A program made the position numbers. Positions 15,001 through 21,000 of a stretch of 64,000 nt of DNA are shown piece by piece. Origin of the DNA: Bryobacterales bacterium (lineage in GTDB: Bacteria; Acidobacteriota; Terriglobia; Bryobacterales; UBA6623). The DNA lies in the NCBI GenBank assembly GCA_963422375.2, contig OY729428.2:1920001-1984000 (forward strand). Direction: 5' to 3'. Within the stretch, counting starts at the first letter, position 1. Each line of letters opens with the position of its first letter.

Positions 15001-18000
15001 GAGCGGGTCGGCTCGAGCGGAGGACCTTGCCAGACCGCCTGCCGGTGCAGGTATCTCGCGGCGGAGCAGGCGATTGCGAGCCGAGCGCCGCGCCGGTGCG
15101 GCGCTCGGCCCCGCGGTCTGTATCAAGATAAACTCGGGCTGGTGCGCCAGGCCTCCGTTTCCGGGAGTTGGCTGCCTTCGCCCGGGCCGCGAGGGATCCT
15201 GCTGCTGAGCCCCTGACGAGGCCGATTAAATGGAACCTGTGGAAGACGCTCAGCGCGCGGCGACGCTCCGCTCACTCCCGAGTGTCGAGGAAGTGCTGCG
15301 ATCAGCCGACGCGGCCAGCTGGATTGCGTTCCTGCCGCGCGAGCGCGTAACGGACTTGGTGCGCGCAACGCTTGCGGAGATCCGCGGTCAGGTCCTGGCC
15401 GGCGCCCCGACCCACGGCGAAGACCCGGCCGAGGAAGTGAAGCGGCGGGTCGGTCGCACTATCGACGGCCTGCTGCGCAGCACGCTGCGTCCGGCGATCA
15501 ATGCCTCGGGCGTGATCCTGCACACGAACCTAGGGCGGGCCCCGCTCAGCCGGGCGGCGATCGAAGCCATCGTCGAGACTTCCGGCTGCTACACCAATCT
15601 CGAGTACGACATCGCGCTGGGCCGTCGCGGACGGCGGGACGTCCATTGCGGCGAATTGCTTAGGAACCTGCTGGGGGCGCCCGCCATCGTCGTCAACAAC
15701 AACGCGGCCGCGGTCTTTCTCGTGCTGAGAGAGCTGGCCGCGGGCGGAGAGGTGATCGTGTCGCGCGGCGAGCTGATCGAGATCGGGGACGGGTTCCGCA
15801 TTCCCGAGATTCTCCAGGCGTCGGGAGCGGCCCTGCGCGAGGTGGGCACGACGAATCGCACCCGTCTAGACGACTACCGGCGCGCGATTGGCCCGGAGAC
15901 CAAGGCACTGATTCGGATTCATCCCAGCAATTTCCGGCAGGTGGGATTCACGGGTCGGCCATCGCTGAAAGAACTGGCCGGGCTGGCGCGTGCCGAATCG
16001 ATACCGCTGATCGAAGATCTCGGCAGCGGGTGCCTGGGCGGACTGGAAGGAACCGGCATGGAAGGGGAGCCGCGCGCGATCGACAGCTTGGGCCAGGGGG
16101 CCGACGTGGTGACGTTCTCGGGCGACAAGCTGCTCGGCGGTCCCCAAGCCGGCATCATCGCGGGCGAGGCAGAGACGGTGGAGCGGATCCGCCGCAATCC
16201 CCTGTTCCGCGCCCTGCGCGTGGACAAGCTCACCTTGGCGGCACTGGCGGCCACGCTCAGGAGCTTCGTGACGGGCCGGCCCGACGACGTGCCGGTGCTG
16301 CGGATGGCGCGCACGTCGGTCGAGGAACTCGCCAAGCGGGCACGGCGGTTCGTCCGGCGGCTCGAGATGCTCCACATGCCGCACGCCGAAGTGGTCCACG
16401 GCGAATCGCTGCTGGGTGGCGGCTCGACGCCGATGCAGACTCTGCCTGCGGCACTGGTGGCCGTCAGCGGTCCCCCCGGGCTTGCGGTTCGCAGGATCGA
16501 GGCGGCCCTGCGCGTGAGCGACCCTCCTGTGATCGCCCGGGTCGAGAGGGACCGTCTGCTGCTAGACTTGCGTACGGTGCGGGAGACCGAAGAGGACGAC
16601 CTCCTCGCAGCGGTCCTGCGGTCCACCGGCGCGACGGACGTCTAGCGCGATGAAGTTCAGCGTGTCGACGCGAGGATTCACCGACATCCTTGACATCACC
16701 GCGAAAGTCAAGGAACTGGCGGCTGGCTCCGGAGCGGGGGACGGCGTGGTCCACGTGTTCGTCGCAGGATCGACCGCGGCTCTCTCGACTATCGAGTTCG
16801 AACCGGGCGCGGTGCGTGACCTGAAGGAGGCGCTCGAACGCATCGCCCCGATGGACGCCGCGTACCACCACAACGAGGCGTGGCACGACGGCAACGGCTA
16901 CGCGCACTTGCGGGCGGCGCTGATGAAGCCGTCGCTGTCGGTGCCAATGGAAGGCGGCCGGCTCGTGCTCGGCACATGGCAGCAGCTCGTGCTGCTTGAC
17001 TTCGACAACCGTCCGCGTCGGCGGACAGTTCATGTCAGGGTGAGCGCGTGCGCCTGACGGGGCGTGCCCGCGCGTAGGCCCGCGCAGGCACTCGTCTGCA
17101 ACCATGTTGCATTTTGAGCTATACTCGATTCCTATGCCTGGTCACCTCGCCGCCCCTGCGCCGGGGGCCCCCGCGCGGGATCGATCTCTCCGGTTGTCGG
17201 CATCGCGGACGGCGCGCCGCTGCTTGGCCTGCTGCGCGCTTGCCTTGGGGCTCTGCTCCGCGGCCGCGGCGCGTGCCTCTGAGGCCGTCACGTGGATCGA
17301 GTCCTACGACGAGGCGCTCGCGGAGGCCCGCCGGACGGGCAAGCCGATCTTCCTCGAATTCCGGTGCGCGCCCTGAAGGGCCGGGAGGGAATTCGACGCA
17401 CAGGTTGTGCTGACCGACGAAGACACCAAGCGGGGGCGCCTGCTGCGGCAGTACGTAACCGCGCGTATCACGCGGATGGACCGAATCAACATCGGGCTAT
17501 TCGACTTCGACCGGTACAACACGCTCTACTTTTTCGCGCTCAACGCGGACGAGCAGATTTACCTCCGATACGGAGGTCGGGACGAAAGGTCTGCCACGAC
17601 CTACCTGGACCTCGAGAGCCTAGAGCTTGCGCTCGAGAGGGGGCTCGATCTGCATCGTCGCTATCTCGTCGGCAAGCTGCCCCGGAAACCGGTGCCGCCA
17701 GCCCGGTACCCCCGCGAAATCCCAGCCCTGCACGAGCGCACGGTCCAGCGCGGCCGCTGCGTGGAATGCCACCTGATCGGCGATCTCGAGAACGTGCAAC
17801 GCGAGCGGGACGGAACGCTTGACAAGCTGACCCACCTATACCGCGCGCCGGAGATCAGGCGAATCGGCATTGAACTGGATATCCCGAAGGGCCTTCGCGT
17901 GGAGCAGGCCAGCGGCGGCGCAGCCGCCGCCGGAATGCGTCCGGGGGACGAGATTCGCGCCGTCAACGGAGTCGATGTCTGGACGTTCGGGGACCTGCAG

Positions 18001-21000
18001 TGGGAGCTCGGCAAACTGCCCCACACCGCGAAGGATCTCGGGATTGGCGTCCTGCGGGACGGAAGGCGCGAGCCGCTCCGAGTGGGCCTACAGCCATTCT
18101 GGTGGCTAACGGATCTGACGTACCGCAACCTCTCGGTGGATCCCCGCGTCTATTTCACTTCGTCCGCCTTGGACGAGCGGGAAAAGGTCGAGCTTGGCTT
18201 CGACCCCCGCGGATTTGCCAGTCGGGTAGTATCGATCGATCCGCTGGCCGAGCTCCTCGGCAGCCACCAGCTCCGGGAGGGTGACGTAATTTACGGTGTG
18301 GACGGCAAGTTCGTGGATGACGTCGCCGATACGGCCCACTTGTACATCAAGCTGCGCAAGCAGGCTGGATCCGAGGTAACTTTGCAGGTCCTGCGCGGGC
18401 GCCAGCGCATGGCACTTGCGCTCAAGACGGAGAGGATGAGTTTTCGGAAATGAATGCGCTCTGCCGAGCCGTCGCTGCGCTGGCTGTCACGGCCAGCCTC
18501 TGGGCCGGCGACTGGTCCGAGCCAGTGGAGGCCACTGCCCGTGACGGCACGGCGCTCGTCACGTGTCGCGCGAGGGTCGCCGGAGAATTTCTCGTGGTTG
18601 AAGTCACCGCCGCCGCCGGCTGGCACGTCTACGCCATGGACAACGAGCAGAGGGCGAGGGAAGCGCTGGCCGGGAAGATGTCGCTGGGCGTCGAGCGGAA
18701 TACGGAGGTCTTGGTATCGGGCGGCTTGGAGCAGGTCGGCGTCTGGTACCAGAGCACTCCCGACGACCATTCGCAGCCCGAGTTGCGGTGGTACTCGTAC
18801 GGTTTCGAGGGGACGACCCTGCTGGCTAGCCGGGTCCGGCGCACGGGAGGCGAAATGGCGAGCGTCGAGGTCCGCGCCCAGGCGTGCGACAGCGCCAGCT
18901 GCGTTAGCGTCGAGGCCGAGCTGCGGGTGAAGGTGCCCGGCGGCGACGGCGCGGCCTTCGCCTTGGATGGCCTAGTCCCCGTGCGGGGTTCGTGAGGCCG
19001 GGCGGCCGGCTCCATTACAGGGTCGGGGGGTCCCAGTGGTGCTCGCTGGGCAGCGGCAGTCGGACCGTGCGCCGCTCCGCGTACGACCGGTAGCCCGCCT
19101 GCACGACTTCCAACGCCCTGAAGCCGTCGGTTCCGTCCGCCCGAGGCTCCGCGCCGCTCTGGATGGCGACGAAGAACGCGCGGAACTGGTCTTCGAACGT
19201 CCTGCGCCTCGGCGGCCAGATATCCACCCAGCCGGGCTCGAGATCTCCCCACCAGCGCGCGGGCCGGGTCCACGCAAGCACTTCTGGAGGCAACACTGTT
19301 GCAGGATCGGACTCCAAATACAACGACAGCGGGGCCGACTGGAACGGCGCGGTGATGAACGCGCTGCAGCATAAGGCCGCCTGCGTCCCGTACAGTGCGA
19401 GCGGGGAAGCGAACGGGCGGGAAAAGCGATGCCAGCCGAGCGATCCGATCGCCCCTGACTGCATCCTGAGCGTCAGGACCACGCTGTCGTCCCTGTCGTG
19501 GCATGCCAGCACGGATGCCATCTCGCAGGAGACCGAGCCAATCTCGCCCAGCAGGTCCCGGATCTGATCGATGCGGTGCTGCCCGACATCGACCAAGGTG
19601 AATCCGCCTCCTTGCTTGACGTCGAACCGGTAGTTCCGCAGGCCTCCGGGAATGACGTCGATGGGCTCGGAAATCGTTCCGCTGAAGGCTCGAACCTCGC
19701 CAAGGATGCCGGCTTCGATCAGGCTCTTGGCGCAGGCATGCTCGGCGCTGAAGCGATGGTGGAACCCTAGCTGGAGCACGACTCCGGCCCTCGCTGCCGA
19801 TTCGTTCATCGCGCTGGCGTCCGCAAGGGACAGGGCGATCGGCTTCTCGCACAGCACGTGGCGGCGCGCGTCGAAGGCCAGCTCGGCTTGTTCGCGGTGG
19901 AACGCATTCGGCGACGCGACGAGCACCGCCTCGACACCCGCTGCTTGGATGGCTTCCGCCGCGCTGGAAGCGACCAGCGGGATGTCGAAACGCTCGGCGA
20001 CGGCCAGAGCGGCGTCACGGCAGGGATCGAACACGCTGACAGCCTTGGCCCCGACGGTCCGCAGGGCGGGAAGGTGGCGCTCGGCGACGACGGAGCCCGC
20101 CCCTATGATTGCGAACGATGGACGTAACGCTGCCATTTCCGCGACGACTGCACCAAGAACGGCTCTTGCCACTATAGCCATCCCGTCATAACCGAATCTG
20201 GCGGCGTGGCCTACTCACGTGTTCGGCAGGGATCAGGAGTGGTGGTCCGTGCCGTTCCGTATTTGACCCGGGTGCCTTCCAGACCGGTCGCAGGCTGGAT
20301 TGCCGCCTGCTGCTCGGCTGCACGAGGCCGCCCGCTGGCAGGCCCTTCGCGCTTCGACGGAACCGGGCAGAGCGGGCTTCCTCGCCTGAAGGGCGACTCT
20401 CGCGTTTGCGGCGGCTGGGCAACTGCGACCAAGGTCGCCGTCAATAGGAGGCACAAGGTACGTCAAGGCGCGCTGACCGTCTTGGCGCGCAGCCAGATGG
20501 AAGCGGTAGAACCGCCAAGTCGAATCTGTCCGGCTGCCAACTGCGACTGATTCGGGCGGGTCACGCTAGTCGCTCGCAAGGAGCTCGAGAGTGGCGTCCT
20601 CACGAGCAGCCCCTCGGTCATCCGTCAACATGCGTTCGACGGCGGTCGCGCAAGGCGAGCGACAGGGCTGTCCTTGCCGAAGCCATGCCACGGCAAGTCC
20701 CAGACCAGCAGGCGAGTCCACCGCACGGCGTGGTACGGCGTCCAGGACATTGCGGGTCCCCCGGGGTCGCTGATGCTCCGTCCGCGACGGTCGTGTCAGG
20801 TGATCGCCGGGACCGGTCGACCGTCCGGCGGTTGGATCGCCGGAGTGAGCCATCAGCGGACGAACACAAGGCCATTTCCAAGCCCATTCGGTAATACTAT
20901 AGGAGGTCGAATGCTTCGATGAAGGAATGCAGCAACTTTCGGTCCCTGCGGTCCATCTCGCGGCGATTTCTATACTTCTCCGGTTCGCTTATGATCTTGA

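Follow-up and report, generated by a model that had tools for sequence, protein, structure and literature searches.

A family of Trx7/PDZ selenoproteins was predicted in 2008 and has since been listed in the selenoproteome reviews of 2022 and 2026. Zhang & Gladyshev 2008 (PMC2398784) call it 'Putative secreted serine protease MucD', with the motif CxxU, a table of the 2022 review (PMC9312934) lists it as 'PDZ domain-containing protein / Thioredoxin_7 / CxxU', and it is curated in NCBIfam as the equivalog NF041199 'trx7_PDZ_seleno'. The accessible parts of the published accounts mention no function, partner gene, CxxCH motif or link to selA for this family. A further described system is DsbD (E. 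coli DipZ), which has a periplasmic gamma (thioredoxin-like) and a periplasmic alpha (immunoglobulin-like) domain, and the gamma-alpha complex of which has been solved (1VRS). In this report, we describe a member of the Trx7/PDZ family in a window of 64,000 nucleotides from a Bryobacterales bacterium and propose that it works with the product of an overlapping downstream gene.

The selenoprotein gene occupies 17104..18453 (+) and comprises 449 codons plus the stop. Gene callers that have no selenoprotein logic cut it in two: a 90-aa ORF (17104-17376) closes at the TGA at 17374-17376, and the frame runs onward to the stop at 18451-18453. The initial annotation had joined these two parts, g03150 and g03151, into one 449-codon gene read through a UGA at codon 91, the single internal TGA of the frame, and the open frame and the conservation of that TGA bear this out. 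The read-through product of 449 aa carries FLEFRCAPU at residues 83-91 and CVECH at 219-223, and over residues 63-441, which align to profile positions 2-389 of 390, it matches NF041199 at 395.4 bits, above the cut-off of 300. Thus, the earlier statement that the whole protein goes unnamed by Pfam and NCBIfam has to be withdrawn, and so has the suggestion of a new family or subfamily, since NF041199 is curated and the family has been in print since 2008; the selenoprotein reading is correct, yet for the same reason the finding is an ordinary one. On the observed gene structure, family membership, Sec machinery, conservation and partner co-occurrence, we consider it highly probable that the UGA encodes Sec within a single gene of the NF041199 family whose product would take part in a redox relay with a partner.

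The Pfam domains claimed earlier were recovered, with Thioredoxin_7 at residues 63-123 (E 1.2e-7), PDZ_2 (E 1.2e-13), PDZ_6 and PDZ. In the AF2 model (pLDDT 93.3, pTM 0.89), a thioredoxin fold of the DsbD-gamma / Thioredoxin_7 type spans the UGA, with strand 1 before Sec and helix 1 after it. This domain (residues 61-188; 17284..17667, +) aligns in VIA-align with 3f9u_B (Z 10.4, rmsd 2.3, 116 aligned) and with DsbD gamma, 1vrs_D (Z 7.6, rmsd 2.6, 105 aligned). The redox motif codons TGC GCG CCC TGA (Cys88-Ala-Pro-Sec91) lie at 17365..17376 (+). Profile alignments to 3f9u (E 8.1e-4) and 3fk8 (E 0.015) place the canonical CxxC at U91..G94 and not at C88..U91, and the alignment showed no conserved cis-Pro. 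We propose that Sec lies at, or adjoining, the canonical nucleophile position and that the invariant Cys88, three residues before it, would form a selenylsulfide redox pair with it. The Sec position is occupied by Cys in 15 of the 20 database homologues of alignment A1; P0110 (51% identical) reads CAPC at the redox motif, and P0123 also has Cys there. In the remaining 5, which are distant, the position is neither Cys nor Sec although Cys88 is still invariant, so the redox pair is not universal in the wider superfamily.

The C-terminal half holds two PDZ domains, which may bring in clients or promote assembly. PDZ domain 1 (about residues 256-328; 17869..18087, +; Pfam PDZ_6 and PDZ), with model strands at 196-268 in mature numbering, structurally matches PDZ domains of Deg/HtrA, CtpB and RseP, and PDZ domain 2 (about residues 351-441; 18154..18426, +; Pfam PDZ_2 at 388-441) aligns over model residues 285-387 with 4fln_A (Z 10.0, rmsd 3.1, 95 aligned). 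The longest start of the gene is the ATG at 17104; the true start could lie downstream, and with the in-frame TTG at 17194, for example, the signal peptide would have a usual length. Homologues have short classical (Sec-type) signal peptides that end right before a conserved Trp, and we infer that the product is exported.

The gene directly downstream (18450..18995, +) encodes a putative exported DsbD-alpha-like protein of 181 aa, and its ATG overlaps the TGA stop of the selenoprotein gene (ATGA). Its own Pfam DsbD_N match (E 2.2e-4) scores 21.7, below the gathering score of 25; 14 of 22 orthologues match DsbD_N at E<=0.01. The partner profile finds no PDB sequence, and Foldseek with the AF2 model (pLDDT 90.8) returns nScsB/nDsbD structures at all of ranks 1-13, the top one being 6c29_A (E 7.3e-5). 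A Cys146-x4-Cys151 pair (QACDSASC; 18885..18902, +) is invariant in 22/22 orthologues from several phyla. The partner adjoins the selenoprotein gene in 29 of 30 family loci, with its start codon overlapping the stop by 4 nt in 26 of them; of the 61 family genomes, the 37 that have the selenoprotein are exactly those that have the partner, with one match each, and among the 57 loci of the species collection, which come from several phyla, 53 have it downstream.

In P0123, the partner is naturally fused to a Cys-form homologue, and it was on this protein (residues 32-427 against 434-606), not on the window's own proteins, that the complex was predicted, in runs made without alignments and with an unscored haem present, which the calibration did not have. 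Three runs gave ipSAE values of 0.79, 0.80 and 0.79, against 0.00 for the best of 3 controls; in the calibration, 51 of 78 solved complexes reach this mark, as do 2 of 108 mismatched pairs, and since the DsbD gamma-alpha complex is itself solved, the pass may reflect likeness only. The contacts agree to at least 89% between runs, with a partner pLDDT of at least 87. On one side, the interface comprises residues 63-67, among them the Sec-equivalent Cys65, together with Arg195 directly before CxxCH, and on the partner side it comprises Cys566 and Cys571; that is, the Sec-equivalent Cys is predicted to contact the Cys pair of the partner. We picture a relay of a soluble gamma/alpha thiol-selenol type that lacks the DsbD membrane domain and in which exchange would take place between the Cys88/Sec pair and the Cys-x4-Cys of the partner. 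The genome also encodes an ordinary DsbD, so a separate relay is not obviously needed.

The motif CVECH (Cys219-Val-Glu-Cys222-His223; 17758..17772, +) is present in 30/30 family loci and may serve, next to the active site, as a c-type haem carrier or as a further redox pair. Its two Cys and its His (C159, C162 and H163 in mature numbering) are invariant in 39/39 aligned sequences down to 24% identity, in a protein with only 17 invariant columns, and this invariance makes a haem c plausible as far as sequence can tell. That the motif binds haem covalently, in which case the protein would be a cytochrome-linked thiol/selenol oxidoreductase, has in our estimate close to an even chance and is compatible with the Sec-dependent relay. 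The motif opens a helix in the AF2 model, homologues carry Sec-type signal peptides, a search of the genome gave 3 matches to cytochrome c assembly proteins, and the residue directly before CxxCH shares the predicted interface with the Cys/Sec loop. However, no cytochrome model of Pfam or NCBIfam matches at E<=0.01, the alignment offers no invariant Met or further His as a distal ligand, and AF2 folds the CxxCH region confidently without a cofactor; structure searches barely covered residues 131-192. A haem-free function, as a second redox-active dithiol or as a metal site with a relaying or stabilising role towards the Cys/Sec site, is possible as well, with a chance somewhat below even. Redox-active dithiols usually have their CxxC at a helix N-terminus, and the position of CVECH in the model, like the lack of a Pfam cytochrome match, fits such a role, which nevertheless leaves the strict invariance of the His after the second Cys in very distant homologues unexplained.

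That the TGA is a true stop, dividing two separate genes or marking a pseudogene, is very improbable. Gene callers do cut here, and, as the initial annotation noted for this gene, the cut is widespread: most of the best 120 database matches are post-UGA fragments of 325-359 aa that go by the names 'hypothetical', 'PDZ domain-containing' or 'serine protease Do'. The gene itself also ends in TGA, and no Sec signal independent of the hairpin described below was found. Yet a stop would leave an incomplete thioredoxin fold on each side, Cys forms exist, and the frame stays open across a single TGA far beyond this genome. In a search with NF041199 over 61 family genomes (G000 included), 35 genomes from 8 of 12 genera match above the cut-off, and all 35 have exactly one TGA and no other stop; of two further genomes, one has only a partial copy (G057) and the other only a copy in two pieces (G009). 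At motif level, 30 of the 35 loci were examined, and in all 30 the TGA is the fourth residue of C-x-x-U, as first described, and is followed by 356-358 open codons. In the species collection, 54 of 57 loci have TGA at the Sec position; by record titles, they span Hydrogenedentota, Planctomycetota/Brocadiaceae, Nitrospirales, KSB1, Poribacteria, Blastocatellia and Thermoanaerobaculia. The TGA does not stem from a faulty assembly: it reads without a differing letter in contigs of runs from 3 studies, X1 and X3 among them possibly being the source sample.

The genome also has full Sec machinery, comprising a tRNA-Sec (73.9 bits against a gathering score of 47, anticodon TCA), selB (345.6 bits), selD (299.7 bits) and, within the window, selA (15230..16645, +; TIGR00474 515.8 bits against a cut-off of 267.9; Pfam SelA E 6.6e-125). 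On the same strand, the selenoprotein gene is the second gene after selA, which precedes it in 18 of 30 family loci, and the YjbQ/UPF0047 family gene between them (16650..17057, +; Pfam UPF0047 E 2.6e-33; TIGR00149 91.2 bits against a cut-off of 67.75) is so placed in 9 of 30. All 37 family genomes with the selenoprotein gene have selA, and no copy was found in the 7 family genomes without selA. Codon 91 would thus be decoded as Sec by SelA, SelB, SelD and tRNA-Sec, assisted by a hairpin with a GGU loop that begins 21 nt after the UGA.

This candidate SECIS apical hairpin, GCACA-GGU-UGUGC (17398..17410, +), was obtained with RNAalifold from 26 sequences and has 5 pairs, 1 compensatory change and 2 wobble changes; the compensatory change occurs in 1 of the 26 sequences, and the covariation term is -0.15. 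The synonymous sites inside it are frozen across several phyla (GCA 25/25, CAG 25/25, GTT 25/26 and GTG 26/26), whereas flanking invariant residues use 2-6 codons. The 18-nt string GACGCACAGGTTGTGCTG, first reported as identical in all 12 loci then examined, is so in 25 of 30, and the other five differ by one base each (GTA in L029 and L046; GTG in L035, L050 and L051). In 4 of 30 family loci, AGGUG or AGGUA disrupts the A-U pair that closes the loop, the 76 nt after the UGA fold no better than shuffled sequence (z -0.02), and Rfam has zero family matches for the region.

That the protein is an HtrA/DegP/MucD-type serine protease, as the 2008 MucD name (PMC2398784), the 'serine protease Do' of relatives and a tandem PDZ arrangement like that of DegP/DegQ (Foldseek E 1e-9) would have it, is vanishingly improbable, because a trypsin-like domain and any Pfam protease family are absent, the N-terminal half is a thioredoxin fold, and TIGR02037 reaches 39.9 bits against a cut-off of 416.2, over the PDZ region (270-438) only.

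Compared with NF041199, the MucD prediction of 2008 and the 2022 entry, the protein shows no difference, sharing the full-length HMM match, Thioredoxin_7, two PDZ domains, CxxU and Cys-form homologues; what our analysis would add to the family is the partner gene with its predicted contact, the invariance of CxxCH and the position of selA two genes upstream. With MamP / MamE magnetochrome proteins it shares PDZ and a short CxxCH segment in an exported protein (NF040965, PDZ region only, E 1.6e-6, 27.9 bits against a cut-off of 300; 4jj0_A, Z 8.5, rmsd 3.9, 86 aligned), but the order of parts differs, no magnetochrome repeat was recognised and nothing points to a magnetosome context in the host. 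In the way they are arranged and folded, the two C-terminal PDZ domains match those of HtrA/DegP/DegQ and RseP; in our protein, however, the protease domain is absent and the catalytic part is a thioredoxin fold. TsoB, a rhodanese/DsbD fusion-like selenoprotein (NF045694; a weak, local hit on residues 41-101 at E 6.7e-4, scoring 17.9 bits where the cut-off is 805) with the motif UxxxxU in the table of the 2026 review, likewise has Sec in a DsbD-gamma-like thioredoxin domain but also has a rhodanese and the DsbD membrane part. With DsbD, the locus has in common the gamma-type fold of the selenoprotein's N-terminal domain, the alpha-type fold of the partner with its Cys pair near the end of the sandwich, and the predicted contact through active-site residues. 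In contrast to DsbD, two separate polypeptides are involved, the membrane beta domain is absent from both the protein and the operon, Sec replaces Cys and is preceded by an extra upstream Cys, two PDZ domains and CxxCH have been added, and the partner has a C-x4-C pair where E. coli DsbD alpha has C-x5-C.

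Our analysis indicates that g03150 and g03151, called as two separate genes, make up a single selenoprotein gene (17104-18453, forward strand). The first open reading frame, 17104-17376, is closed by a TGA at 17374-17376, and the frame carries on to a stop at 18451-18453, so that the read-through product has 449 residues, with FLEFRCAPU at residues 83-91 (the motif C-A-P-U occupying 88-91) and CVECH at 219-223. An assembly error can be ruled out for the TGA, since contigs of sequencing runs from three studies, two runs possibly being from the source sample, span it with zero differing letters. 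The position of the start codon is less certain: the signal peptides of the homologues are short and classical and, judged by eye, end just before a conserved Trp, and an ATG at 17104 would give the window copy a leader that, by eye rather than by a signal-peptide predictor, is unusually long, so that translation may in fact begin at an in-frame TTG, at 17194. The Pfam domains reported in the initial annotation were recovered, namely Thioredoxin_7 at residues 63-123 (E 1.2e-7) and matches to PDZ_2, PDZ_6 and PDZ (E 1.2e-13 to 7.5e-8). Its statement that no NCBIfam model describes the whole protein was mistaken, because the equivalog model NF041199, 'trx7_PDZ_seleno', aligns residues 63-441 with positions 2-389 of its 390, nearly the full length, and scores 395.4 bits where the curated cut-off is 300; a six-frame search gives the same model 387.5 bits at this locus, with one TGA inside the match. 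The protein has the traits of that family, a Thioredoxin_7 domain with two PDZ domains C-terminal to it (seen in Pfam, in an AF2 model and in structure matches) and a CxxU motif within the thioredoxin domain.

The genome also encodes the machinery to decode this codon. A tRNA-Sec scores 73.9 bits, above the gathering score of 47, and is called by ARAGORN as tRNA-SeC with anticodon TCA; selB (345.6 bits), selA (515.8 bits) and selD (299.7 bits) were found as well, all of them, like the tRNA, above their curated cut-offs. Across the family, NF041199 is above its cut-off in 35 of 61 genomes from 8 of 12 genera, every match containing exactly one TGA and zero other stops, and in all 30 loci drawn from these 35 matches C-x-x-TGA is followed by 356-358 open codons. 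selA is present in each of the 37 family genomes that carry the selenoprotein gene, and the seven genomes without selA have no copy of it; the family genomes are kin, so neither these counts nor those of the UGA are independent. When one genome per species was scanned with a single protein as the query, 57 loci were returned, of which 54 have TGA at the Sec position (51 together with L057, L095 and L104), and the three others are a locus truncated at its 5' end (L093) and a pair, L082 and L109, that are halves of a single disrupted copy. Most of these loci are from Bryobacterales, and further ones come from other Acidobacteriota (Blastocatellia, Thermoanaerobaculia and Solibacteraceae) and from Hydrogenedentota, Planctomycetota including Brocadiaceae, Nitrospirales, KSB1, Poribacteria and one member of the Akkermansiaceae. 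Cysteine forms exist, such as the database homologues P0110 (415 aa, 51% identical, CAPC) and P0123 (CVPC), and of the 20 database homologues in our 39-sequence alignment, 15 have Cys in the Sec column and five have neither Cys nor Sec there. The initial proposal of one frame across the TGA is confirmed, and on these sequence data we consider the reading of codon 91 as selenocysteine to be right.

Several loci depart from the common arrangement or deserve a remark. The Akkermansiaceae metagenome-assembled genome has TGA at both motif positions (L104:2791-3939, FR-U-A-P-U), with the downstream hairpin as elsewhere. The disrupted copy of the species scan belongs to a genome of the same genus, in which some 7.5 kb separates the two pieces of the gene (G009:C3:2788514-2789356 and 2796877-2797191) and the upstream piece also has a TAG; another family genome, G057, has only a partial copy covering profile positions 50-300. 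In G015 (C14:102160-103486) the selA profile is matched in two adjacent stretches, one covering its positions 1-241 and the other 236-454, pointing to a frameshift or to an error in the assembly; the TGA-containing selenoprotein gene is nonetheless retained. SelD fusions with a pyridine nucleotide-disulfide oxidoreductase domain are known, and the selD of the genome studied here is the C-terminal part of a 759-aa open reading frame (L018:241-2520; contig C1, about 1373173-1375452) with Pyr_redox_2, of the pyridine nucleotide-disulfide oxidoreductases, at 20-313 and AIRS and AIRS_C at 457-754. In the window, selA (15230-16645, forward strand) lies two genes upstream of the selenoprotein gene, and it is upstream in 18 of 30 family loci; this proximity would fit co-regulation, with which it is compatible rather than being proof of it. 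About 2 kb upstream of selA, on the reverse strand, is an open reading frame for an IS1595-family transposase (12277-13167; DDE_Tnp_IS1595, E 2.2e-34, with a zinc ribbon).

A SECIS hairpin is expected within a certain short distance downstream of the UGA, and a candidate is present at 17398-17410, where GCACA-GGU-UGUGC forms a single 5-bp stem with a GGU loop that begins 21 nt past the UGA (RNAalifold, 26 sequences from several phyla). Among these sequences, one substitution is compensatory (A-U to G-C in L091) and two are wobble-preserving; covariation is thus thin, and in 4 of 30 family loci the A-U pair that closes the loop is disrupted. Conservation at synonymous sites is the stronger argument for the putative hairpin: the codons within it are fixed (GCA 25/25, CAG 25/25, GTT 25/26, GTG 26/26), and the invariant residues flanking it vary in theirs (six codons for Arg, two for Phe, two for Asp, four for Gly and six for Leu). 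The codons after the TGA had been described as identical in all 12 loci; in the larger sample a conserved string is indeed present, with full identity in only 25 of 30. An Rfam scan of 17200-17600 returned no SECIS family and only two chance-level matches (E 3.3 and 3.7), and a single-sequence fold of 17365-17440 was no better than shuffled sequence (z -0.02). The candidate is a small hairpin of no more than shuffled stability that combines a position downstream of the UGA with a G in the apical loop, the latter being a feature of the SECIS criterion in the legend of Fig. 7 of Zhang & Gladyshev 2008 (PMC2398784).

We then consider the anatomy of the mature protein, for which an AF2 model built from the 39-sequence alignment has a pLDDT of 93.3 and a pTM of 0.89 over 389 residues. 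Model residues 1-128 have a thioredoxin fold, whose closest VIA-align match is the DsbD-gamma-like 3f9u_B (Z 10.4, rmsd 2.3, 116 aligned), followed by the Thermus thioredoxin 2lst (Z 9.7, rmsd 2.8, 117 aligned), AGR3 (3ph9_B; Z 9.3, rmsd 2.8, 118 aligned), DsbH (2ju5; Z 8.5, rmsd 2.6, 110 aligned) and E. coli DsbD gamma (1vrs_D; Z 7.6, rmsd 2.6, 105 aligned). Both C-terminal domains resemble the PDZ domains of Deg/HtrA, CtpB and RseP; Foldseek with the whole model retrieved tandem-PDZ proteases only, and the N-terminal domain was recovered only by VIA-align. Seventeen columns of the whole protein are invariant in the 39 sequences, which range down to 24% identity, and they include Arg87-Cys88, Cys219, Cys222 and His223; a third Cys, three residues past the Sec column, is found in many homologues (C-x-x-C/U-x-x-C). 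In profile alignments with 3f9u (E 8.1e-4) and 3fk8 (E 0.015), the canonical CxxC falls on U91..G94 and not on C88..U91, and helix 1 of the model begins four residues past Sec. Because of these two alignments and the start of helix 1, we propose with moderate confidence that Sec would occupy the canonical nucleophile position and that Cys88 would be an extra, family-specific partner, a register that the literature label 'CxxU' hides.

The second cysteine motif, CxxCH, is invariant, the homologues have signal peptides by eye, and the genome has three Cytochrom_C_asm matches. Covalent haem at CxxCH is plausible on account of this invariance, the histidine of the motif, the export signal and the cytochrome c maturation genes. 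Against haem, no cytochrome c family in Pfam or NCBIfam matches at E<=0.01, with residues 131-192 barely covered by the structure search, and no candidate for a distal haem ligand stands out. With nearly the same likelihood, CxxCH would be a haem-free dithiol or metal site. For the corresponding region of the Cys form P0110, an atlas look-up returned only fragments of its own family, whose scores of 0.76-0.78 carry no information.

Directly 3' of the selenoprotein gene lies a gene for a DsbD-alpha-like protein (18450-18995, forward strand), whose ATG overlaps the TGA stop of the selenoprotein and whose product of 181 aa has a signal-peptide-like N-terminus. This partner is immediately 3' in 29 of 30 family loci, a start codon overlapping the selenoprotein stop by 4 nt in 26 of the 30 (in three of these 26, that start gives an implausibly long N-terminus), and it is downstream in 53 of the 57 loci of the species scan; the remaining four are two loci that end too early, the upstream half of the disrupted copy and the Akkermansiaceae locus, where a search of the next 4 kb at E<=1e-4 gave no partner. 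A six-frame profile search places the partner, in a single match per genome, in the 37 of 61 genomes that carry the selenoprotein and in no others. The sole family locus with a separated pair is in the same genus (L029:2807-4135, also L077), where a transposase-like open reading frame of more than 440 aa splits the selenoprotein gene from the partner, about 1.9 kb on. The cysteines of the partner, Cys146-x4-Cys151, are invariant in 22 of 22 orthologues, and it also has a conserved L-x-x-V-R segment at the C-terminus. Pfam DsbD_N matches the partner weakly (E 2.2e-4, below the cut-off) and 14 of the 22 orthologues at E<=0.01; NCBIfam gave zero families at E<=0.01, and the partner profile had no match among PDB sequences at E<=10. 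Its AF2 model (pLDDT 90.8) places nScsB and nDsbD structures at all of Foldseek ranks 1 to 13, the best being 6c29_A (E 7.3e-5, TM 0.53) and 1vrs_C (rmsd 3.3, TM 0.67 by target). In the 606-aa homologue P0123, a Cys-form Trx7/PDZ protein and the DsbD-alpha-like partner are joined in one polypeptide, a fusion that may itself be a gene-call artefact from a frameshift.

A complex was predicted for this natural fusion, split at its linker, and not for the window's own proteins. Three runs gave ipSAE values of 0.79, 0.80 and 0.79 against 0.00 for the best of three controls, passing a mark that 51 of 78 solved complexes attain, as do 2 of 108 mismatched pairs; these values apply to two parts of one homologue chain modelled without alignments and with haem, which is outside the calibration. 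At least 89% of contacts are shared between the runs, and the pLDDT of the partner is at least 87. On the thioredoxin side the predicted interface comprises residues 63-67 including Cys65 (the Sec equivalent), helix 1 and Arg195 directly before CxxCH; on the partner side it includes Cys566 and Cys571, with the pairs 65-571, 66-566 and 66-571 among the best-defined contacts. This result may reflect no more than likeness to the DsbD gamma-alpha complex, because that complex has already been solved (1VRS).

The Trx7/PDZ selenoprotein family is already known, both curated in NCBIfam and published, so our result is an ordinary one, an annotation fix: a single selenoprotein gene, with Sec at codon 91, should replace the separate entries g03150 and g03151. 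A passage of Zhang & Gladyshev 2008 lists 'Putative secreted serine protease MucD' as one of seven new GOS selenoprotein families, with 2 Sec and 12 Cys sequences and the motif CxxU (PMC2398784), and a passage of Xu et al. 2021 describes MucD (CxxC/U) as fused with a PDZ domain and as having extra conserved Cys residues of unknown function (PMC9402790). In the literature searched we found no functional study of the family. An HtrA/DegP serine protease can be dismissed, TIGR02037 scoring 39.9 bits against a cut-off of 416.2, in the PDZ region only, with zero protease families in Pfam. Since the protein is without a protease domain, 'serine protease Do' and 'MucD' are misnomers, and the former, like 'PDZ domain-containing protein', is a misleading public name on post-UGA fragments. 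Starting points for a first biochemical study, as leads rather than results, are the partner gene (with its strict co-occurrence, its overlap and its occasional fusion), the contact predicted to link the Sec residue with the partner's Cys pair, and the invariant CxxCH.

As to function, the protein would most likely be an exported selenol/thiol-disulfide oxidoreductase, in which the Cys88/Sec91 pair would exchange with the Cys pair of the partner, as DsbD gamma does with DsbD alpha, and the PDZ domains would presumably serve in client binding or in assembly. We also entertain, as a speculative and rather improbable extension, that the two proteins form a soluble periplasmic relay in which a c-type haem at CxxCH replaces the DsbD membrane domain, the haem beside the Cys/Sec loop serving as the entry or exit point of electrons; one-electron cytochrome chemistry would then be coupled to the selenylsulfide, perhaps with Cys88 as a haem ligand. 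We know of no earlier description of a cytochrome-linked selenol/thiol-disulfide oxidoreductase. Like DsbD, the selenoprotein and its partner have a gamma-type thioredoxin domain and an alpha-type Ig-like domain, and both domains contain a redox pair. In contrast to DsbD, the membrane beta domain (DsbD_TM) is absent from the neighbours at 10 to 27 kb of the window, and the sole DsbD_TM match of the genome is elsewhere, at C2:2294416. Thus, because the operon neighbourhood is without DsbD_TM, the pair would act as the corresponding parts of DsbD do, without being a DsbD itself.
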